The notes below the pieces were generated by a model that was not told the DNA's origin, ran no database searches, and saw only the letters and a program-made list of their open reading frames with translations. Positions 3,155-26,340 of a stretch of DNA of 64,000 bases are shown here, piece after piece. Position 1 is the first letter of the stretch; the number at the start of each line of letters is the position of its first letter. Position numbers and translations under genes: made by a program. This DNA is from Patescibacteria group bacterium. Lineage in GTDB: Bacteria > Patescibacteriota > Patescibacteriia > Magasanikbacterales > JBBTQS01. The stretch lies in assembly GCA_038065555.1 (NCBI GenBank), contig JBBTQS010000003.1:26266-90265 (forward strand), written 5' to 3'.

Positions 3155-3415
3155 ATGCCTCCACGCCTACGCAAAAATGATAACGCCCGCATCGAACAGT
3201 ACCAGCAAAAGGTAAAACGGTTCGAGCGACGACATCACGTCTTTGCCGCGCTCCTTATCGGCAGCGCGATCGTACTTTTTTGGCGCGGCGTGTGGAACCT
3301 CGCTGATATTTATCTCTTCCCCAATCAGGACGTTGCCAGCGCTGTAGTTTGTATTGTCGTTGGATTCATCATCCTCTACCTACGCGACTTCGATCTCAAG
3401 GAATTCCTCAAATAA
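3155..3415 (+). CDS. small membrane protein, unknown function
   Basis: 86 aa: a basic N-terminus followed by two hydrophobic helices (HHVFAALLIGSAIVLFW... VVCIVVGFIILYL). Confidence 0.45.
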   Translation: MPPRLRKNDNARIEQYQQKVKRFERRHHVFAALLIGSAIVLFWRGVWNLADIYLFPNQDVASAVVCIVVGFIILYLRDFDLKEFLK

Positions 3416-9987: not shown

Positions 9988-10776
9988 CTACCGCTTCTTG
10001 TAACTCACTGGCGTTGCAACATCCCACACAATCTCGAAGAGTGCACGAAGAATATTTGCTAGCACACTACTTTCGATAATAGCAGTCATGCGATTGGGGC
10101 GCTGTGGCAGCGCAATCACGACATTATTGTCATAGACCGTCAGCTCGCCACCAAATTGCATGAGCCCCTTCGCCTGATCCTTCGTCACCCATCGATACAC
10201 GGTATACGGAGACGGACGATACGTACGAATCCACTCACGTCCCTGCGGCGTGTCGAGCAGGAGGATTCGCTCTTTAATTTTTAGTTTGTTGCGATTGCGG
10301 TTGTACGAGCGCGCCCAATCCCACAACTCTGGATCTTGCCAGCACTCCACATCAGTCACAGAAATAATCTCGCCCGTGGCCTGCAATGATTCCTCGTACA
10401 GCCGCGTAACACCCTGCACACCTTCCTGATACCGAATCACTGGCTTTTCATTGTCCTTGTATAGCGCGACAAGATCTGGAAGTAATTGCTCCGCGCTCGC
10501 CACATTTCGCTCCCACTGATTTTTCTTGTTCTTCACGTACTGCAAGAAGCTGCGCGGATGTTCTGCTGTGTACTTGCGCTTCATTTCTGAACCACTAGTT
10601 CGTGTCACCAACCCCAGGAGCCCAAGACGTTCGAGAATAGAGTACCCAAGCGTGCGTGTGATCTGCGCCTTCTTTGTGATTTCAGTAACCGTAGCGGGCC
10701 CCAGTTCTAGGAGAGTGAGGTACACACATGCCTCGTTTTCTTCTAGGCCATAGGAGCGTAATGCAGTATGGAGCAT
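9988..10776 (-). CDS. TrmB-family transcriptional regulator (paralog 2)
   Basis: HTH 'ACVYLTLLELGPATVTEITKKAQITRTLGYSILERLGLLGLV' plus TrmB-like C-terminal domain. Confidence 0.8.
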   Translation of the reverse strand: MLHTALRSYGLEENEACVYLTLLELGPATVTEITKKAQITRTLGYSILERLGLLGLVTRTSGSEMKRKYTAEHPRSFLQYVKNKKNQWERNVASAEQLLPDLVALYKDNEKPVIRYQEGVQGVTRLYEESLQATGEIISVTDVECWQDPELWDWARSYNRNRNKLKIKERILLLDTPQGREWIRTYRPSPYTVYRWVTKDQAKGLMQFGGELTVYDNNVVIALPQRPNRMTAIIESSVLANILRALFEIVWDVATPVSYKKR

Positions 10777-13302: not shown

Positions 13303-14034
13303 TCAAGCACGCTCCTGGCTCCCCCACGCGTGCTCAAACAACGCGCGTTGCATCTCCGCAATTGTCGCGCTCTCGATCACTACGACCACATAGTCGCCTG
13401 TGAATGAAATGAGGCACACCTTGGACTTCCACACGTACATCATCCCATGGAATTCCGGTCGACTCGGCACAATGCGAACCTGACGCAACTGCTGCTGACC
13501 GAGACGTTTGCGCTCCTGGGCCTTTGCAGAGTTTGGCAAGATCACACGAACAGGAATCTTCCGACGAACACGTTCTTCCACGAAATTCTCAAACTTCTCA
13601 ACTTCGCGAAAAATATCATCAGCAGCGCCAAACGACAGCAGCTCACTCGCCTCCTCAAGAATTTCCTCGAGTACCGTCGCAATTCCTGCTTTCCCTTCAT
13701 ACATGCGTACGCCTGGACGCTTGCGCGAGCGACTATGCATGGCTTCGAGTTCTGGCAATGATTCCTTGAGCAACGACACCCGTTGCTCCATGCGCGCAAG
13801 CACGCGACGCGGCTCCTCGGCACTGAAGTATCGTGCCTTCTTTTTCAAAAACGTGGTCACCATTCCCTTTGCACGCAGCGTTTCTAGTACTTCATACGCG
13901 GTTGACCGAGCCACCGCTGCCTTCTCTGCGATGCGCTGCACCGAAGCGGAACCGAGCTCTAACGCCGCCTTGTAGAGCGCCGTTTCCTTGGTGTTGAGAC
14001 CACAGGTTCTAAGTACTTCTTCAAGATTTGCCAT
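13303..14034 (-). CDS. TrmB-family transcriptional regulator (paralog 3)
   Basis: HTH 'ETALYKAALELGSASVQRIAEKAAVARSTAYEVLETLRAKGMV'; same C-terminal architecture as the other paralogs. Confidence 0.8.
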   Translation of the reverse strand: MANLEEVLRTCGLNTKETALYKAALELGSASVQRIAEKAAVARSTAYEVLETLRAKGMVTTFLKKKARYFSAEEPRRVLARMEQRVSLLKESLPELEAMHSRSRKRPGVRMYEGKAGIATVLEEILEEASELLSFGAADDIFREVEKFENFVEERVRRKIPVRVILPNSAKAQERKRLGQQQLRQVRIVPSRPEFHGMMYVWKSKVCLISFTGDYVVVVIESATIAEMQRALFEHAWGSQERA

Positions 14035-17136: not shown

Positions 17137-17172
17137 CCCCGCGTTCACACGAGCGCGGGGTTGTTGTTTTTT
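17137..17172 (+). terminator. rho-independent terminator
   Basis: CCCCGCG-ttcacacga-CGCGGGG followed by TTGTTGTTTTTT. Confidence 0.7.
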
Positions 17173-17272
17173 ACTGCGACCACATCACTTCTAAAAACCA
17201 AGACCGCGTGCCTATTCCACTCGCCTACTAATTCACAAAGGAGGGTCTTCTCTTTTTGAGTGAGCTCCCGAT

Positions 17273-17587
17273 CTACATGCGCTCCAAGAAATCGTGAAGC
17301 ACTTTTTCCGTTGACTCAACAAGCGCCTTTTTGATCACTTCCGGTGCAATACGATTCTGTAAAAAACCTGAGAGTTCCTCCGGGGTACCCATTTGCGTTT
17401 CCTTCAAAGCAGCTTGGTCCTCTGCACTCAGTTGTGACATCAGGGTAGTCATCATGCGCATTGCAACCGCTGCGTCGATCTTCTGCAGCACAGTTGACTT
17501 CTCCTCTTCCGACAAGCCAGCCATCGTAAAAAGCTCCTGCAATGACTCGACAACTCCGCCACCTTGGTTTGCCAAAGGTTGAGTCAT
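17273..17587 (-). CDS. hypothetical helical protein
   Basis: 104 aa, acidic and helical. Start is 2 nt after the stop of the upstream gene, so translationally coupled. Confidence 0.45.
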   Translation of the reverse strand: MTQPLANQGGGVVESLQELFTMAGLSEEEKSTVLQKIDAAVAMRMMTTLMSQLSAEDQAALKETQMGTPEELSGFLQNRIAPEVIKKALVESTEKVLHDFLERM

Positions 17588-17589
17588 AT

Positions 17590-17988
17590 TTATTCATTTT
17601 CGTTAGAGGTTGGCTTCTTAAGCATGCCAAATTTTTCACGGAAGGATTCAAGTCGCAATCCCATATACCCACTAGCGCCCATTGCAAGTATAGCCGACCC
17701 CCCGATGGCCTTTGTAAACCCGACCGCGCTAGCGGTCATACCTGGATTTACAACGCCAGTTTTTTCGAGAAGAAACAGAGCACTTGTGGTAGCCAAGGCG
17801 CCCAGAACCATCACACCATTTGTTTTCATTACGTTGGTCCACCCCTTCGACCAAGATGCTAACCGTTGTTCTTCTGCCTCATACACACCTTCTGCAGCTT
17901 GCAACACCCGGCTATGAAATTGCTCCCGCGTTTCTTCTGGTGTTTGCACGAGCTCAGGGTTGTTTCCTCGTCGTTCTGGATTGTTCAT
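17590..17988 (-). CDS. hypothetical protein with a central hydrophobic segment
   Basis: Start at ATG 17988 (MNNPERRGNN...). One or two hydrophobic helices. Forms a 2-gene operon with 17273-17587. Confidence 0.45.
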   Translation of the reverse strand: MNNPERRGNNPELVQTPEETREQFHSRVLQAAEGVYEAEEQRLASWSKGWTNVMKTNGVMVLGALATTSALFLLEKTGVVNPGMTASAVGFTKAIGGSAILAMGASGYMGLRLESFREKFGMLKKPTSNENE

Positions 17989-18099
17989 ATGCAAAAAGCA
18001 TACACCACTTCTCACTCTCCCAACAAGAAATGCTTATCCACAAATTCCTTTTTGTTGTTGAAAAAAATGAGCTGCTCTACTGAATTCTACGCTTCGGGT

Positions 18100-18271
18100 G
18101 GAATGTAATTCCTCCGACAGTCAAAAAGAATTCTCCCTCGGAGACTTTCGCAGATCGATCGGCCGGCCGAATCAGCCGATAGGCGTGATGCGTTATCCGA
18201 TCGATCGAGAACGAGACGCGATACCCCGGTGAGGGGGGTCGACGTTGTGCTCCGAGGGAGAATTCTTTTTG
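18100..18271. repeat. nested inverted-repeat element adjacent to tRNA-Gly
   Basis: Perfect 22-bp IR CAAAAAGAATTCTCCCTCGGAG (18122-18143) / its complement (18250-18271) encloses 106 nt. Inside are a further perfect 10-bp IR GATCGATCGG (18153-18162) / CCGATCGATC (18197-18206), a GGCCGGCC core and a small CCCCGG-tga-GGGG hairpin. GGAAT-gta-ATTCC sits at 18100-18112. GAATTC recurs three times. Confidence 0.5.
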
Positions 18272-18275
18272 GCGG

Positions 18276-18347
18276 AGCGGGTAGCGGGAGTCGAACCCGC
18301 TTCATCAGTTTGGAAAACTGAGATAATAACCGTTATACGATACCCGC
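18276..18347 (-). tRNA. tRNA-Gly (anticodon UCC)
   Basis: Minus strand: GCGGGTA acceptor stem / TACCCGC. Anticodon stem TCAGT/ACTGA with loop TTTCCAA, anticodon TCC. T-arm GCGGG-TTCGACT-CCCGC. Discriminator T; CCA not encoded. Confidence 0.85.
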
Positions 18348-18450: not shown

Positions 18451-19770
18451 ATGCCCGCACTTGACCTCAACCCACAATTCCAACGTGCGCTCGACCTCAT
18501 GGAGAACACTGACCACCACCTCTTCATCACCGGTCGCGCCGGCACGGGCAAATCCACACTCCTCACCCATTTCCGAGAGCACACGAAGAAAAAAATCGCC
18601 GTACTCGCTCCAACCGGCGTCGCCGCACTCAATGTGCGTGGCCAAACCATCCACTCGTTCTTCCTCATTCCACCACACATCACACCACTCTCAGCAGGCA
18701 AAGAAAAACTTTCGCCCCGACTCAAACCTATTTGCAAAGCGTTAGAAACCATCATCATCGACGAAGTCTCCATGGTCCGCGCAGAGCTCCTCGATTGCAT
18801 CGATGTGCTCCTGCGTCGATACCGTGGATCACAGGAACCATTCGGCGGAGTGCAAATGATTTTCATTGGCGATCTGTACCAACTCCCGCCCGTGGTCTCA
18901 AGTAATGAGGAAGCGCAGTCGTTCACCATGCTCTACCCCAGCCCATTCTTCTTCGACGCGCATGTGCTGGGCCGAACCACATTCGAACTTGTGCAACTCG
19001 AAAAAATCTATCGCCAACGAGACACAACATTCATCGACCTGCTCAATCGTGTACGCACCAACACAACAACTCCTGCGGATCTCGAGGAGCTCAACGCACG
19101 CTGGATCGAGGATCATGGTTCGCTCTCAGAACACGAAACAACCATTGTTCTCACCGCGACCAACGCAGCTGCAGACGCCATCAACACTGCACGTCTTGCC
19201 GAAATCGACGAAGACGAGCACACATTTGGCGCCGTCGTGCAGGGCAATTTCGACCAACGTGTATACCCAACCGCTGAATCACTCACGCTCAAGAAAGGCG
19301 CGCAAGTCATGATGCTCGTCAACGATCCTGCAGGCGGATACGTGAATGGATCACTTGGTATTATCAAGCAAATCGGCCGCGAGGACGAGGATGTACCCAG
19401 CATGATCACTGTCGAACTCACCAACGGCGAAGACGCGACGGTCGCCATGCACAATTGGGAAATTCATCGCTATTCATTCGACGCGAGTATCAGCGCACTC
19501 ACGACAGAACCCGTCGGGTCGTTTCGCCAGTTCCCACTTCGTCTTGCGTGGGCTGTTACTATTCACAAGAGCCAAGGCAAGACATTTGATCGCGTTGTCA
19601 TCGACTTGGGCCGTGGTGCATTTGCACATGGCCAAGTGTATGTTGCACTGTCACGCTGTACGAGTCTCGACGGCATCGCGCTCCTGCGCCCCATCCGCAA
19701 CACTGACATCAAGATGGATGCGCGCGTCCACACATTTTTCGAGCGACTTACTTCGTCGGTTTCTTCTTGA
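18451..19770 (+). CDS. Pif1/RecD-like superfamily 1 DNA helicase
   Basis: Walker A 'GRAGTGKST', 'IIIDEVSMV' (motif II) and the C-terminal 'VYVALSRCTSLDGIALL' signature of Pif1/RecD-family helicases. Confidence 0.8.
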   Translation: MPALDLNPQFQRALDLMENTDHHLFITGRAGTGKSTLLTHFREHTKKKIAVLAPTGVAALNVRGQTIHSFFLIPPHITPLSAGKEKLSPRLKPICKALETIIIDEVSMVRAELLDCIDVLLRRYRGSQEPFGGVQMIFIGDLYQLPPVVSSNEEAQSFTMLYPSPFFFDAHVLGRTTFELVQLEKIYRQRDTTFIDLLNRVRTNTTTPADLEELNARWIEDHGSLSEHETTIVLTATNAAADAINTARLAEIDEDEHTFGAVVQGNFDQRVYPTAESLTLKKGAQVMMLVNDPAGGYVNGSLGIIKQIGREDEDVPSMITVELTNGEDATVAMHNWEIHRYSFDASISALTTEPVGSFRQFPLRLAWAVTIHKSQGKTFDRVVIDLGRGAFAHGQVYVALSRCTSLDGIALLRPIRNTDIKMDARVHTFFERLTSSVSS

Positions 19771-20419
19771 GATAGAGCCGCGCACTCGGGCACAGATCGC
19801 GCACCGGACACTCCTCGCACTTCGGCCGCGGCGCGCGACAAACTGCTCGTCCGTGGAGAATCATGTACTCATTTACTTCCAGCCAGTTCTTCCTGGGAAA
19901 GAGCGCTTCGAGATCTGCAGCAATCGCAATCGGATTCTTACTTTTCGTGAGGCCCAAGCGCGCAGCAACTCGTGTCACATGCGTATCCACGGCAACACCT
20001 GTCTGCACTCCGAATTCTTTGGCCATGATGAGATTCGCAGATTTGTACGCCACGCCCGGCAAGAGAATCAGCTCTTCGACCGTCCGGGGCACTTCGCCAC
20101 CAAATCGCTCTACAAGTACTCGTCCAATCCCTTGCAAATACCGCGACTTCGCGCGGAAGAACGTGATCGATCCGATCGCACGTTCGAGCTCAGCAACTGG
20201 CGCATTCGCGTAGTCTGCAGCGGTACGATACTTCTTGAAGAGTTCGCGCGTGACGAGATTCACGCGGACATCCGTGCACTGCGCAGACAGCATAGTAGCC
20301 ACGACGAGCTCGAGCGGCGTGGACCACAAAACGAACGCATCAGGTACGCGAGCGCGTGCATAGACTTTCTTGAGTTTGCGCAATAGACTCTGTCCTCTCT
20401 GCTGCAATATTGACTTCAT
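19748..20419 (-). CDS. nth: endonuclease III (DNA glycosylase/AP lyase)
   Basis: HhH-GPD fold (LPGVAYKSANLI...) and a C-terminal 4Fe-4S loop CRAPRPKCEECPVRDLC. Confidence 0.85.
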   Translation of the reverse strand: MKSILQQRGQSLLRKLKKVYARARVPDAFVLWSTPLELVVATMLSAQCTDVRVNLVTRELFKKYRTAADYANAPVAELERAIGSITFFRAKSRYLQGIGRVLVERFGGEVPRTVEELILLPGVAYKSANLIMAKEFGVQTGVAVDTHVTRVAARLGLTKSKNPIAIAADLEALFPRKNWLEVNEYMILHGRAVCRAPRPKCEECPVRDLCPSARLYLKKKPTK

Positions 20420-20496
20420 ACAACTCTCACTCTACCAGAACACCTTGTATTGGGAAGACGCACTGTGAGACACTACCCCTATATTCACCACATCCT

Positions 20497-21147
20497 ATGC
20501 CTCCACGCTCCCCAGAATTTGGCGGGTACCGGCCACCAGAGATCCTACCAAGCGTCGAAGCCCCACCTGACGTCTTCGCGCAATGGCAACGCAAAGCAAC
20601 CGAACTCATGAATCCTGAGAAAAAGCACGCGCCCGAACAACTCGGACCTGATCGACCATTTCCACTCATCATCGACGGCAAAGAGGTGCCAGCCTTCGAA
20701 CGTGCACAATTTGACGGGCAAAGTTTTGAGTTGCAAGTGTACATTCCAGAAATCGACACACCTATCGCGGAGGTGAGATATCGAGCAACGGGAACAGCGC
20801 TCGTCATGGGCAAGACATTCGTAACGGACGCATACCAAAAATTAGGCATCAACTCACGTCTCTTCCAAGACATGAGTAATCTCCACCCAGATTGCACATC
20901 TGTTGAAACAAAACTAGACGAAACAAATGGATTCACCTATCGCAATGCGGTACAAGACGGCATGGACCCAATCAGTGCAATACAACTGACTCCTGCAGCA
21001 AAGATCCGCGAGAAGGCCGGATGGGTATTTGACCCAAAGACGTCATCGCTTCCAGCTTGGGACGCAGAAAGACGACGTTGGCATGTGCCAGACAAGGAGC
21101 ACAACGACACCACGGTCAGGTTGACCTACCACCGTGCAAAACCGTAG
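20497..21147 (+). CDS. hypothetical protein
   Basis: Start at the internal ATG (MPPRSPEFGG...); the track ORF begins with TTG at 20410. Pro-rich N-terminus; no domain recognised. First gene of a three-gene co-directional block. Confidence 0.45.
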   Translation: MPPRSPEFGGYRPPEILPSVEAPPDVFAQWQRKATELMNPEKKHAPEQLGPDRPFPLIIDGKEVPAFERAQFDGQSFELQVYIPEIDTPIAEVRYRATGTALVMGKTFVTDAYQKLGINSRLFQDMSNLHPDCTSVETKLDETNGFTYRNAVQDGMDPISAIQLTPAAKIREKAGWVFDPKTSSLPAWDAERRRWHVPDKEHNDTTVRLTYHRAKP

Positions 21148-21183
21148 GATGCGAGGGAGGAGAGAACCTAACTACCGCACACC

Positions 21184-21852
21184 ATGAAACCTATTATTGT
21201 TGATATCGAGACAATCGGCGCACCCTGGGACTCACTCGACGAGCCACAGCGCGAGTATCTGACCAAGAATGACGAGGACGACGAGGCTCGCGACAAAACT
21301 CGCGATTCGCTCGCGCTCTGGGCGCCAACCGCGCGCATCGTGACAATCGCAATGCTCAATCCACTGTCAGACAAAGGCAAGGTGTATTTCAGTGCAGGTG
21401 ACAGTGTTATTGACTCATTCAACGAAGACAATGCTGAGTACGTCTGCGTAGACGAGAAGTCGATGCTCGAGAAATTCTGGGACGATGTGCAGCACTATGC
21501 GCCGGTAATCACATTCAACGGACGATGCTTCGACGGACCAATGCTCATGTTGCGCTCAGCAATGCTCGATGTACGCCCGAGTCTCAACCTCGTTCCCTAT
21601 CGTTACGACTACAAGTCACACTGTGATTTGCTCGATCAACTCACCTTCTACGGTGCAACTCGCAAATTCAATCTCGATATGTATGCTCGTGCATTCGGCA
21701 TCCGCAGTCCAAAGGAAGAAGGAGTGACAGGTGACCAAGTTGGCACCATGTATGCCGATGGCAAATACGTCGACATTGCGCGTTACTGCCTTCGCGATGT
21801 TCGCGCTACTGCCGAACTCTGGAAACGCTGGGACTACCTCCTGAAATTCTAA
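21184..21852 (+). CDS. DEDD-type 3'-5' exonuclease-like protein (PolB-exonuclease-like, RNase H fold)
   Basis: MKPIIVDIETIG (Exo I DxE motif) and the overall pattern of stand-alone predicted 3'-5' exonucleases related to the family-B polymerase exo domain. Confidence 0.6.
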   Translation: MKPIIVDIETIGAPWDSLDEPQREYLTKNDEDDEARDKTRDSLALWAPTARIVTIAMLNPLSDKGKVYFSAGDSVIDSFNEDNAEYVCVDEKSMLEKFWDDVQHYAPVITFNGRCFDGPMLMLRSAMLDVRPSLNLVPYRYDYKSHCDLLDQLTFYGATRKFNLDMYARAFGIRSPKEEGVTGDQVGTMYADGKYVDIARYCLRDVRATAELWKRWDYLLKF

Positions 21853-21856
21853 TGGC

Positions 21857-23284
21857 ATGACTCCACGACACCCGCTCACCGCCTCGCAGTTCCTCCACTA
21901 CGAGTTCTGCCCGAATTGGGTCTGGCTTGATGCACACGGAGATCACAGTCGTCGCGCGCCGATGAGCGGGCTCATGGAGAAATTGCTCGAACAAGGCGTT
22001 GTGCACGAACAACATGTCGTGACACAAATGCAACCAACTGAAGTCTCAACGCGTGAGACCGCAGCAGCAGCCGAAGAAACCATGCACCTCATGCATGCAG
22101 GAGCAGAGGCAATTCACGGCGGTGTGCTCACTGCTGTAATCGATGGGCGCCAGTGGATCGGCAGACCCGATCTCCTACTGCGACGTTCTGGTGATTCTGC
22201 ATTTGGTCGATACTGCTACGAGGCAGTGGAGATCAAGAGTAGCCACGAGATGAAGCCAGTGCAGCGACTGCAACTCACCTTCTACTCCATCCTTTTGCAG
22301 GAAGTACAAGGAACATTTCCACCACGCGGAGGCATCATCACCATTCAGGGCGAGCGATTGTACTTCGATCCGCATGACACGATTGATCGGTTCACCGCGC
22401 GACGTCGAGAGATCGAACGCATTCTTGATGGCAAAGAACCCGGCATTACACTCACGCGTGGATGTTTGCAATCCCCGTGGGCAGCAGTGTGCCTAGAACG
22501 CGCAACAGAGGCGCGAGATATTTCGTTGCTTTACAATATTGACCGATTAGCACTCGATCTCCTGCGACGCAACAACATCCACACCCTTGAGGATGCTGCG
22601 CTCATGGATCCAGCGCTCATTCCACATGTACCCGGTGTTACACCTACACGCCTTGCACACATTCGATTGCAGGCGGCATCATTCTTGCACAACACCGTTG
22701 AGGTTGTACGCGAGCCACACATTTCGAAGAACGGTCTTCTGATTCATTTCGATATCGAAGCAGATCCACTCGTGGATACAGAATATCTCTTTGGATTTCT
22801 TATCGAAGGTGGTACAGAAGATACGTACGTCAATTTCCTTGCGAAGCAACCAGGCGACGAGAGCGCGATGTGGCACCAATTCTTACAGTGGCTCGAGACA
22901 CTCCCCGAGCAATACACCATTTATCATTACGCGCCGTACGAGAAGCACCACGTGATGATGCTCGCAAAAAAATACGGATCTACTCCTGCGCTCGAGCGAT
23001 TCCAGCAGAACCTTGTTGACCTCTTTGAGATTGCACAACGATCAGTAATCTTCCCGCTCTCGTTCTACTCATTGAAAGACATTTGCAAATACCTCGGATT
23101 CTCATGGCGCAATAATCAAGGGAGTGGTACCCAGAGTATTTTTTGGTATGAACGCTGGCTCGAGACTGGAGATCACAGCGCTCTCGAAGAATGTATTCGC
23201 TACAACGAAGACGACGTACGCGCTAGCGCGTTTTTGCGCCGGTGGCTCGAGAACCATAGTACGCAGCAGCCAACGCAGTTGTAA
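21857..23284 (+). CDS. RecB-family nuclease (TM0106-like): Cas4-like PD-(D/E)xK domain fused to a DEDD exonuclease-like domain
   Basis: N-terminus CPNWVWL, 'GRPDLLL' and 'YEAVEIKSS' (D...EXK nuclease motifs) plus a CxxxxxxxxC pair. C-terminal 'IHFDIEADPLVDTEYLFGF' is the exonuclease DxE motif. Confidence 0.65.
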   Translation: MTPRHPLTASQFLHYEFCPNWVWLDAHGDHSRRAPMSGLMEKLLEQGVVHEQHVVTQMQPTEVSTRETAAAAEETMHLMHAGAEAIHGGVLTAVIDGRQWIGRPDLLLRRSGDSAFGRYCYEAVEIKSSHEMKPVQRLQLTFYSILLQEVQGTFPPRGGIITIQGERLYFDPHDTIDRFTARRREIERILDGKEPGITLTRGCLQSPWAAVCLERATEARDISLLYNIDRLALDLLRRNNIHTLEDAALMDPALIPHVPGVTPTRLAHIRLQAASFLHNTVEVVREPHISKNGLLIHFDIEADPLVDTEYLFGFLIEGGTEDTYVNFLAKQPGDESAMWHQFLQWLETLPEQYTIYHYAPYEKHHVMMLAKKYGSTPALERFQQNLVDLFEIAQRSVIFPLSFYSLKDICKYLGFSWRNNQGSGTQSIFWYERWLETGDHSALEECIRYNEDDVRASAFLRRWLENHSTQQPTQL

Positions 23285-24407
23285 TTGGCACTGCCAACAC
23301 AAGTGCACACGAGCCAACGAGTGTGCGGACAATTTCTTCGGAAATCCCTTCACTATTTATTGCAGCCCAGACTGGCTGGTACTCATTGGTAGCAGTGAGG
23401 AGAATGAGCGGGAACGACGCACCAGCGTATGCAAGAGCAAGTGTGTTAACCAGAGATGCGATATGCTCACGTCCTACAGATAACCCGCGATGGTAAAGAT
23501 CCGCACGCGTCAGTGCGGGATTTGCATGGTGCAACTCTTCCACAACAGCCACTTGGGCCGTTGTAATGTCGTCCAGAATTCCCAATGCACCAATCAGAAT
23601 ACTCCCGAGCAGCAATCCACGCAGATCTAACGTCGCAAGAATGCCTGTTTTGAGGAAGTATGCTTCCTCACTGCCGTAGCCATACAGGCGCGCTACCCAC
23701 ACAAATCCATAGGAGAGCACTGCGGCGAGGCAGCAAGCGATCACCGTGCTCACCCAGGCAATGGACGTGCGGCGTGTGAATCCGTGAGCGACAAACAATG
23801 CAACTGTCGCAATAACAATCGATCCTACAATGCACGCGAGCAATGGATCACCACCGCGGATAATCCAAGGGATCACTCCTTTTACTAACACGAGCAGACT
23901 GATCCCAAGACCCACAACTGATCCCAGTCCTTTCCAGCGACCGAGCAACAACACGGCAGCAAGGAAAATCAGCCCAGCAACAAGAAGCGCTGGCAATCGA
24001 TACGGTTCGTAGATGTGGTACACCTCACCGAGTTTGGATCCGTCGTATGTCTCGGACTTGATAAGCACAACCCAATCACCTTTTTCTACAACAAGACCTT
24101 CACGCAGTGCGAAGTCCATGCCGTGATTAATCTGTTGTTCGCGTCCTTCCTCATCCCCGCTTTTGATTTGGACAGTAACGCGCTGCATGATGCGCTCTGT
24201 ACCATCTTCTTCATTTTCTACTGCAGAATTCTCGACAGCGGTGACCTCAGCGCGATACCAGACATCGTTCTTTGGTACATACGTCGCTGGATCGACGCTA
24301 CCTGGCGTACTGGTCGATTGTGCCTGTACCCCCTGAGTCGTGGCAACCACCAATAACACTGCACACACAGCAACACTCATGATTCGCATCCATTGATTCC
24401 AACGCAT
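23223..24407 (-). CDS. YibE/F-family integral membrane protein
   Basis: N-terminal signal/TM, a large exposed domain, then 7-8 TM helices. Start taken at ATG 24405-24407 (MRWNQWMRIMSVAV...). The upstream 85 codons of the track ORF lack an RBS or membrane character. Confidence 0.6.
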   Translation of the reverse strand: MRWNQWMRIMSVAVCAVLLVVATTQGVQAQSTSTPGSVDPATYVPKNDVWYRAEVTAVENSAVENEEDGTERIMQRVTVQIKSGDEEGREQQINHGMDFALREGLVVEKGDWVVLIKSETYDGSKLGEVYHIYEPYRLPALLVAGLIFLAAVLLLGRWKGLGSVVGLGISLLVLVKGVIPWIIRGGDPLLACIVGSIVIATVALFVAHGFTRRTSIAWVSTVIACCLAAVLSYGFVWVARLYGYGSEEAYFLKTGILATLDLRGLLLGSILIGALGILDDITTAQVAVVEELHHANPALTRADLYHRGLSVGREHIASLVNTLALAYAGASFPLILLTATNEYQPVWAAINSEGISEEIVRTLVGSCALVLAVPITTALAAAYYGSRATGAKTR

Positions 24408-24470
24408 AGTACACCCATGGTACCACTCGCTCCTCTTTACACAAACACATCCATTGCGTACAACTAGGAC

Positions 24471-24935
24471 ATGCAACCACACCCAGACATCGTCGTCATC
24501 CTTCCGAATATTCGTTCTGCCCACAATGTAGGTGCATTCTTTCGTACCGCAGACGCGATTGGCGTGCGCAAGATCTACCTCACAGGGTACACTCCAACTC
24601 CTGGCCACCCACGAGTGGACAAGGTTTCGCTCGGCGCTGAGAAAACGATTCCCTGGGAACACCGCAAAACCACCCCTTCACTCCTTCGCGAGCTGCGAGC
24701 CAACGGCTACAGCATTGTGGCACTCGAGAAGACCAAGAAAAGTATTGACTACCGCGAATGGACACCTGTATTCCCACTCGCCATCATTGTTGGCAACGAA
24801 GTAACGGGCATCACTCCAGCACAACTCGCCATCGCAGACACCGTCGTACATCTCCCCATGCTCGGGACCAAGGAATCACTCAACGTCTCTGTTGCCTTTG
24901 GCGGCCTCGCCTACGCAATTGCACGTTTTTTCTAA
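24471..24935 (+). CDS. SpoU/TrmH-family RNA 2'-O-methyltransferase (small TrmL-like form)
   Basis: SPOUT motifs 'LPNIRSAHNVGAFFRTADA', 'IVGNEVTGI' and 'LNVSVAFGGLAY'. Confidence 0.75.
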   Translation: MQPHPDIVVILPNIRSAHNVGAFFRTADAIGVRKIYLTGYTPTPGHPRVDKVSLGAEKTIPWEHRKTTPSLLRELRANGYSIVALEKTKKSIDYREWTPVFPLAIIVGNEVTGITPAQLAIADTVVHLPMLGTKESLNVSVAFGGLAYAIARFF

Positions 24936-25225: not shown

Positions 25226-25472
25226 GCCCGCTACATGGACCTTGGGCAAGACCAGATTTTGCTCCTCCAGAGCAGAATGTCTCGCGTAGCAAGAGGGAGA
25301 TGCATTGCAATGGGGAACGCATAGCAATTTTCCCTGTCCACGTTGTACCACAACCCAACCGGCAAAGCCGCGCGGAGTGAAGTGACCGAGCACTCGTGCC
25401 CAGTACCTTCACTTCCGCGCGGCTAACCGACTTCCAGAATGCTGTCACCTACGTGATGGTTTTTCTTATTTT
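25226..25472 (+). ncRNA. candidate small RNA of unknown class
   Basis: Promoter above; a 15-bp bulged hairpin at 25368-25423; terminal small hairpin GUCAC-cuac-GUGAU plus GGUUUUUCUUAUUUU at 25444-25472. I found no match to tmRNA, RNase P or SRP signature motifs. Confidence 0.25.
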
Positions 25473-26229
25473 AACTCTTTCGACCTGATTCTTTGCGCTG
25501 CGCCTTTGCTCCGACAAATGCGAAATGAAAGAGCGTGCGCAATGTTTGTGCGAGTCGCTTGCTCTCAATAATTGCCGAATACATTTTGCCCTCGAATGTA
25601 ACCAAATTGATTTTGTCTCCGTACACACCGATGTGTGCCTTGAACTCGCCGTCTTTGCCCGCCACATAGTAGCGCTCTCCACTATCACTACTCCCACTTG
25701 TACCACCATAGAGTCCACGCATCCGCACGGAACGCTTGCGTAGGATGTTACGCAGCGGCTGCAAATCTTGTGGTGTGAGCACGGTGAAGAGTGCGTCGGC
25801 ATCAGCGATCTCGTCCATTTCCTTGAAGTCCGTGTTCGCCCAATCTTCCATGATTGCACGTACACCTTCCTTGCCTTCGAAGAGGCGAACAATAGGCTTG
25901 TCCCCGCCAGCCTGCAGTGTCAGCTCTGGGAGCATCTGTTCGAGATCAGCAATCTTGCCAGCAACGTCACTATGGTACCGATGCGCGTACGCAATGAGCT
26001 TGTTAGGTTGTTCTGCTGCAAAATAGCGCTTCTTGCCACGCATCACATTGGTGAACAACCCGCGCTCTGTGAGCGCGTCCACTGCGGTATACACTGCCTG
26101 GCGCGACAGATGCGTTGCCTTCGTGAAATCCAGAATAGTGCCAGCTCCACGAGTGAGGCCAGCCACATAGACTTTGATTTCACTGTCCAATAGGCCCAGT
26201 GAGCGCAAAAGCGGAGCAAGATCTTTCAT
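25471..26229 (-). CDS. TrmB-family transcriptional regulator (paralog 4)
   Basis: Start ATG 26227-26229 (MKDLAPLLRSLGLLDSEIKVYVAGLTRGAGTILDFTKATHLSRQAVYTAVDALTERGLF). TrmB C-terminal domain. Confidence 0.8.
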   Translation of the reverse strand: MKDLAPLLRSLGLLDSEIKVYVAGLTRGAGTILDFTKATHLSRQAVYTAVDALTERGLFTNVMRGKKRYFAAEQPNKLIAYAHRYHSDVAGKIADLEQMLPELTLQAGGDKPIVRLFEGKEGVRAIMEDWANTDFKEMDEIADADALFTVLTPQDLQPLRNILRKRSVRMRGLYGGTSGSSDSGERYYVAGKDGEFKAHIGVYGDKINLVTFEGKMYSAIIESKRLAQTLRTLFHFAFVGAKAQRKESGRKS

Positions 26230-26340
26230 ATTTAGTACGTTTTTACAAGTGTAGCACATGGGGATAAAAACGCCAGAATAACAAAAAGACCCACCCGGAT
26301 GGTGAGGTCGCCAAATAATTCAAAGCGATCTCGCACTCAA

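Follow-up and report, generated by a model that had tools for sequence, protein, structure and literature searches.

We analysed a 64,000-nt stretch of the genome of a Patescibacteria group bacterium (contig JBBTQS010000003.1, positions 26,266 to 90,265; hereafter the window), concentrating on positions 18451–23284, where genes for a Pif1-type helicase, an endonuclease III (Nth), a stand-alone exonuclease (exo2) and a TM0106-type nuclease (TM0106) lie together. The locus is probably a stretch of chromosome where housekeeping genes for nucleic-acid maintenance came together stepwise beside a tRNA-Gly gene, and not a dedicated multi-component system. Only exo2 and the TM0106 gene after it, with a 4-nt gap between them, are likely to form a unit that is both conserved and co-transcribed, and in relatives this unit runs on into a small SpoU methyltransferase gene. 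The original prediction, made from the sequence, had proposed a dedicated DNA-end resection or repair module, or alternatively a phage-defence module. A general repair flavour of the neighbourhood remains plausible, but a module of three or four components is unsupported by conservation.

Conservation of the exo2–TM0106 pair

The window was compared with loci from relatives (L-numbers), of which L001–L003 are from the same species (95–97% nucleotide identity), and with two distant sets consisting of 79 exo2 loci from GTDB species (47–56% identity) and 79 TM0106 loci from metagenomes (33–45% identity). Direct succession of exo2 and TM0106 was found in L001–L003, in L010 and L090 (89% identity for exo2, 79% for TM0106) and in L007–L009 (61% and 47%). 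A 79-aa open reading frame (ORF) separates the two genes in L004–L006 (58% and 51%), and in L172 (TM0106 approximately 52% identity) exo2 precedes TM0106 by about 850 nt. In the public gene call, positions 3199–4149 of L172 are given as a 240-aa ORF on the minus strand, without a Pfam match, while the plus strand encodes the exo2 homologue (324 bits), and a gene-calling error of this kind would mask the synteny in annotation-based surveys.

Co-occurrence across genomes had been suggested as a check, with its absence in relatives counting against the original prediction, and the genes were largely found not to co-occur. TM0106 was present within 6 kb of exo2 in 0 of the 79 distant exo2 loci, exo2 adjoined TM0106 in 0 of the 79 distant TM0106 loci, and the first gene of the proposed block was restricted to the same species. 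One duplicated contig (L094/L120) among the distant TM0106 loci had a 33-bit match to the exo2 profile 5 kb away. The exo2–TM0106 pair is thus a lineage-specific synteny of its own narrow Patescibacteria clade and the "four-component cluster" is an accretion. As exo2 and TM0106 are the sole genes kept together, and this only among close relatives, the arrangement points to an ordinary repair-gene neighbourhood rather than a new dedicated system.

Away from this clade the two genes keep different company. Of the 79 distant exo2 loci, 45 (metagenome-assembled genomes labelled Ignavibacteria or Bacteroidota; L015–L089, e.g., L054 3266–6660 and L059) have ligT, recA, recX and exo2 in colinear order, with exo2 immediately 3′ of recX as the last gene and stop and start codons often overlapping; Pfam searches confirmed the identities of RecX and LigT. 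This linkage is the best available evidence on function and supports a role of the PF10108 family, to which exo2 belongs, in recombination or repair. No description of exo2 as a member of a recA operon was found in the literature searched. In 18 of the 79 loci a small (approximately 155 aa) SpoU gene had the same orientation as exo2, on either side of it and about 3 kb away at most, and in seven the two genes abutted (loci with the association include L018, L040, L045, L048, L052, L075 and L089). This association may reflect a functional link or an ancestral exo2–SpoU pair. In L004, L007 and L172 the end of TM0106 overlaps the start of SpoU. A simple history may be that TM0106 was placed inside an ancestral exo2–SpoU pair, accompanied by a YibE/F gene in the window, L010 and L090.

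The distant TM0106 loci displayed no consistent repair partner, their neighbours including genes for cyclophilin, SecD, YibE/F and an HD protein. YibE/F was convergent on TM0106, as it is in the window, in 10 of these 79 loci. A gene for a 243-aa Cys-rich PDDEXK_1 (Cas4-like) nuclease was located upstream on the same strand in another 10 of the 79 (L141, L143, L147, L153, L155, L156, L158, L161, L164, L169), directly adjacent in six.

The two nucleases

The ORF coordinates of the original prediction were reproduced exactly by our ORF map. The product of exo2 (21184–21852, + strand; 222 aa) is a stand-alone, PolB-exo-like DEDDy-type 3′–5′ exonuclease of the PF10108/COG3298 family, as had been proposed. 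It matched PF10108 with 73.9 bits against a cutoff of 24, and the DEDDy residues D7, E9, D117, Y201 and D205 were invariant in an alignment of 30 homologues. When the family profile was searched against the PDB, only proofreading exonuclease domains of archaeal PolB were returned (E approximately 1e-5).

TM0106 (21857–23284, + strand; 475 aa) matched TIGR03491 end to end (model positions 2–462 of 462) with 328.3 bits against a cutoff of 97.45, and PF13482 with 116.9 bits; matches to Cas4 and PDDEXK_1 were sub-threshold. These results bear out the proposed fusion of a Cas4/RecB-like PD-(D/E)xK nuclease to a DEDD exonuclease, and the hidden Markov model (HMM) assignments that had been recommended (COG3298, here as PF10108, COG2251/TIGR03491 and, for the helicase, PF05970) were all supported. 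The N-terminal Cas4/RecB/Dna2-like domain (aa 1–215; 21857–22501) contains D105, K127 and Q139, which form the PD-(D/E)xK and QxxxY motifs and were invariant in 28 homologues. Cys18, Cys203 and Cys212 of this domain were mostly conserved and were lost jointly in Legionella and Simkania-type members. The C-terminal DEDDy-type 3′–5′ exonuclease domain (PF13482; 22727–23284) carries D299, E301, E362, D388, Y449 and D453, likewise invariant in the 28 homologues. The motifs quoted in the original prediction (GRPDLL...EAVEIK, FDIEAD and the Cys pair GCLQSPWAAVC) are all present. The two domains are joined by a short helical linker (aa ~216–290; 22502–22726), for which the AlphaFold2 model (pLDDT 92.8) has helices at 209–218, 230–238, 244–248 and 263–278; L224, L236, Q272 and A273 are conserved. 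Judged by its sequence pattern only, this linker may be helix-hairpin-helix-like. The protein in the window is identical to one already named in NCBI, and a PDB sequence search with TM0106 returned nothing. The description of exo2 and TM0106 as carrying tandem exonuclease paralogues was rejected: hhalign gave a probability of 9.6% between exo2 and the exonuclease domain of TM0106, with only the ExoIII motif aligning, and the two are only remote superfamily relatives.

From these folds, TM0106 would be a self-contained DNA-end or flap-trimming enzyme with both nucleases on one polypeptide. Its Cas4/Dna2-like PD-(D/E)xK domain would cut or degrade 5′ single-stranded tails, and its PolB/MrfB-like DEDDy domain would take off 3′ tails. 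exo2 would be a separate 3′–5′ exonuclease for recombination or repair, tied to the RecA pathway, with Pif1 (a 5′–3′ helicase) and Nth (base excision repair) presumably acting in their canonical roles.

Pif1 helicase and endonuclease III

The helicase (18451–19770, + strand; 439 aa) is a compact bacterial member of the Pif1 family of SF1B helicases, in agreement with the original assignment. It matched PF05970 (109.5 bits) and the Pif1_2B domain (26.9 bits) and, over its full length, the solved Pif1 helicases 8bns_A (450.9 bits), 6s3e (303.8 bits) and 5fhd (approximately 287 bits). The assignment of the next gene (19748–20419, − strand; 223 aa) to endonuclease III, a bifunctional HhH-GPD glycosylase, is likewise retained. 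It scored 207.9 bits against TIGR01083, marginally under the cutoff of 211.7, and 72.1 bits against PF00730, and its translation shows YKSANL, VDTH and CRAPRPKCEECPVRDLC, which provide the catalytic Lys and Asp and the Fe–S motif C-x6-C-x2-C-x5-C. The helicase gene and nth are convergent with a 23-nt overlap, and nth is divergent from the + strand block that contains exo2 and TM0106. Their adjacency was found only in L001–L003, L010 and L090, i.e., in relatives at approximately 75% nucleotide identity or more. L004, L007 and L172 have no adjacent Pif1 gene, and a single partial Pif1 match (L118) was detected near the 79 distant TM0106 loci. Both genes are transcribed separately from exo2–TM0106 and encode canonical enzymes that are merely nearby.

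The inserted GNAT-fold gene

The gene at 20497–21147 (+ strand; 216 aa, with a longer version from TTG 20410 also possible) opens what had been described as a three-gene co-directional block. The same-strand arrangement and tight packing of this trio were confirmed, with 36 nt between the first gene and exo2; the first gene is, however, a strain-specific insert and not a conserved operon member. It was found only in the same species (L001–L003) and was absent from L004, L007, L010 and L090. L010 and L090, at approximately 75% nucleotide identity, have 88 nt in place of window positions 20375–21144. The gene has thus been inserted recently between nth and exo2, and nothing evident ties it to the nucleases.

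The protein had no match in Pfam, NCBIfam, PADLOC or PHROGs, and a word-index homology search returned only the query. Exhaustive HMMER searching over 1.84 billion representatives identified 27 relatives. Among these (P0242–P0267) some are domains within giant proteins of 2875–4460 aa, for which Pfam gave nothing useful, and others are small with signal-peptide-like N-termini. This distribution suggests a secreted or toxin-like acyltransferase module. The structure prediction that had been called for was performed with 16 homologues and gave a divergent GNAT acetyltransferase fold (pLDDT 89.9). The acetyl-CoA motif Q/R-x-x-G-x-G/A reads Q-K-L-G-I-N in this protein, with G/A at the last position only in distant homologues. 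The rare GNAT-fold family to which it belongs is unannotated so far.

Chromosomal setting and strain variation

The window also encodes rpoB, rpoC, ftsK, recA, comM and a H+-pyrophosphatase, which places the locus in the core chromosome of a candidate phyla radiation (CPR) bacterium. Gene GC content is even (0.52–0.55) and equals the genome value. Downstream of the pair, a YibE/F-family membrane protein gene (23223–24662, − strand; PF07907, 226 bits) is convergent on TM0106 and overlaps its end; its real start is probably at about 24380, because the L001 homologue was called at 385 aa. This is followed by a gene for a small SpoU/SPOUT RNA 2′-O-methyltransferase (24471–24935, + strand; PF00588, 109.6 bits). 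A promoter and terminator scan gave nothing beyond shuffled expectation. Three genes for TrmB-family (PF01978) regulators are located in 17 kb around the locus (9988–10776, 13303–14034 and 25471–26259, from the annotation of the near-identical L001).

The locus is anchored in synteny by a tRNA-Gly(UCC) gene (18274–18347, − strand; identified by ARAGORN and by Rfam RF00005 with 58.9 bits). The same tRNA-Gly is found upstream of exo2 in L007, L004, L010 and L090, and the genes in between vary. In L007 exo2 follows the tRNA, and in L004 a helix-turn-helix gene and nth intervene. L010 and L090 have the order tRNA-Gly, 2.1-kb insert, second tRNA-Gly copy, Pif1, nth and exo2. The window has the same order as these two with a single tRNA-Gly, no 2.1-kb insert and the GNAT-fold gene between nth and exo2.

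Several further strain-level differences were observed. The two tRNA-Gly copies around the 2.1-kb insert are at 1649–3868 in L010 and at 976–3195 in L090; the insert contains a 487-aa ORF, for which Pfam gave no match. Window positions 17170–18113, with two small ORFs without a family match, are missing from the 96%-identical contig L001. At the edge of this strain-specific indel, directly beside the tRNA-Gly, lies an inverted repeat with perfectly matching 22-nt arms (CAAAAAGAATTCTCCCTCGGAG and its complement; 18122–18143 and 18250–18271, 106 nt between them), with a terminator-like hairpin in each arm. The alignment of L001 to the window ends after 26287, where the window has a fructose-bisphosphate aldolase gene and a sugar kinase-like ORF, marking another strain-level rearrangement breakpoint. 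We also weighed, and rejected, the possibility that the entire block belongs to an integrated mobile element, given uniform GC content, core genes that are syntenic in relatives and the lack of an integrase or flanking repeats around the block. L010 (CAZVGV010000001.1) is syntenic at approximately 75% nucleotide identity, yet it is titled 'uncultured Gammaproteobacteria bacterium', and several other CPR-like loci are labelled Bdellovibrionales or Gammaproteobacteria. These labels are probably taxonomic errors of metagenome-assembled genomes.

Alternative explanations

A dedicated end-resection module, in which Pif1 would unwind DNA for degradation by TM0106 (with 5′ and 3′ nucleases) and exo2, could stand in for RecBCD, AddAB or RecJ in a reduced CPR genome, by analogy with eukaryotic Pif1–Dna2. 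The catalytic motifs are intact in all components, exo2 and TM0106 are probably co-transcribed, and the exo2 family is elsewhere linked to recA–recX. We nevertheless consider this explanation unlikely: Pif1 is on a separate unit convergent with nth and adjacent only in the closest relatives, the two nucleases are together in none of the loci of either distant set, and Pif1 is near distant TM0106 only as the partial match in L118. A bolder version, which we regard as quite doubtful, is that exo2 and the bifunctional TM0106, possibly fed by Pif1, form a minimal helicase-uncoupled end-resection or flap pathway of this clade that replaces RecBCD, AddAB or RecJ, with TM0106 a free-living relative of the Cas4 and DEDD trimming pair of CRISPR adaptation. 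The DEDD superfamily also takes in RNase T, RNase D and oligoribonuclease, and exo2, possibly with TM0106, might instead act on RNA as a 3′–5′ exoribonuclease alongside SpoU in tRNA or rRNA maturation or RNA repair. This would fit the recurrent SpoU neighbour of exo2, the overlap of TM0106 with SpoU in three relatives, and the operons shared by exo2 and LigT/ThpR, an RNA 2′,3′-cyclic phosphodiesterase family, in Ignavibacteria-type genomes. It is rather unlikely, however, as the nearest sequence and structure relatives are proofreading domains of DNA polymerase B and the DNA repair exonuclease MrfB, exo2 lies immediately 3′ of recA–recX in more than half of its distant loci, and compact CPR genomes place unrelated housekeeping genes in one operon.

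An anti-phage module, made up of the Cas4-like nuclease, the exonucleases and the helicase with the GNAT protein as effector or modifier, had also been suggested and is highly improbable. The locus does neighbour a tRNA gene with strain-level insertions, and PADLOC gave weak generic Cas4 matches for TM0106 and RecD-like candidate-system matches for Pif1. These matches are generic and at the level of the fold, exo2 and the GNAT protein had no PADLOC match, and no system-level assignment resulted from either PADLOC or the PHROG scan. Searches of the 64-kb window revealed no CRISPR-like repeat array, and none of the neighbours checked was a cas gene, consistent with what had been noted originally. 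In IMG/VR no relative of TM0106 and only four weak relatives of exo2 were detected, and across hundreds of genomes and metagenome contigs both genes are surrounded by housekeeping genes. All genes at the locus match the genome in GC content.

The accretion of housekeeping genes beside the tRNA-Gly remains our preferred explanation, with several points weighing against it. The separation of exo2 and TM0106 in distant genomes is compatible with joint work when the genes are encoded apart, and the repeated arrival of nth and Pif1 at the same spot is possibly non-random. The neighbouring SpoU gene, like ligT in the operons with recA, is just as compatible with RNA substrates. No member of PF10108 or TIGR03491 was identified by sequence among solved structures, and in the literature searched only two classification surveys covered both nuclease families, with no experimental work; the substrate (DNA or RNA) and polarity of exo2 and TM0106 are consequently inferred from superfamily membership only.

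The window itself adds little beyond another example of these families. TM0106/COG2251 and PF10108/COG3298 are widespread nuclease families that entered the catalogues over ten years ago, and the literature searched contained no experimental demonstration of function for either. CPR repair repertoires are stripped-down, and the function of both families would help explain the upkeep of such genomes. Leads towards it are the position of exo2 after recA–recX in Ignavibacteria-type genomes, the recurrent SpoU gene beside exo2, and the combination of Cas4/Dna2-like and MrfB-like folds in TM0106.

Comparison with known systems

The helicase resembles the bacterial Pif1 helicases (PDB 8bns, 6s3e, 5fhd) in its compact size, its 2B/SH3 domain and its scores of 300–450 bits over the full length, and no difference was noted. 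Set against eukaryotic Pif1–Dna2 flap processing and bacterial end resection by AddAB/AdnAB, the nuclease here is not fused to a helicase and the adjacency of Pif1 is not conserved.

CRISPR Cas4 proteins (e.g., PDB 8d3l, 7mi4, 4ic1) have the cysteine pattern C...C-x2-C-x5-C, for a four-Cys Fe–S cluster. TM0106 has only three conserved Cys (C-x8-C on the C-terminal side), is fused to an exonuclease, and scores below the Cas4 family cutoffs (TIGR00372, 19.8 vs 65; PF01930, 17.5 vs 22.7), with no cas genes or array nearby. The mitomycin-C repair exonuclease MrfB (YprB) of B. subtilis is described as being of the DEDDh type and works with the helicase MrfA (PDB 8un9; PMC11194089). TM0106 and exo2 differ from it in the Y-x3-D (DEDDy) ExoIII motif and in having no MrfA-like helicase.

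COG2251 has been grouped with DUF83/Cas4 (Steczkiewicz et al., 2012, PMC3424549), and COG2251/PF13482 with DUF83 makes up RNase H-like family F.13, while PF10108/COG3298 is family F.12, a predicted 3′–5′ exonuclease related to the PolB exonuclease domain (Majorek et al., 2014, PMC3985635). TM0106 is an ordinary member of the TIGR03491/COG2251 family, with the same Cas4-like and PF13482 architecture, no structural difference and no association with CRISPR. exo2 is like other PF10108/COG3298 proteins in its above-threshold HMM match, its full DEDDy set and its stand-alone form of about 220 aa, and differs in being followed by TM0106, an arrangement restricted to its own clade, whereas elsewhere the gene is placed after recA–recX or beside SpoU. 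Both families are already catalogued as predicted nucleases, and the window holds ordinary members of each.

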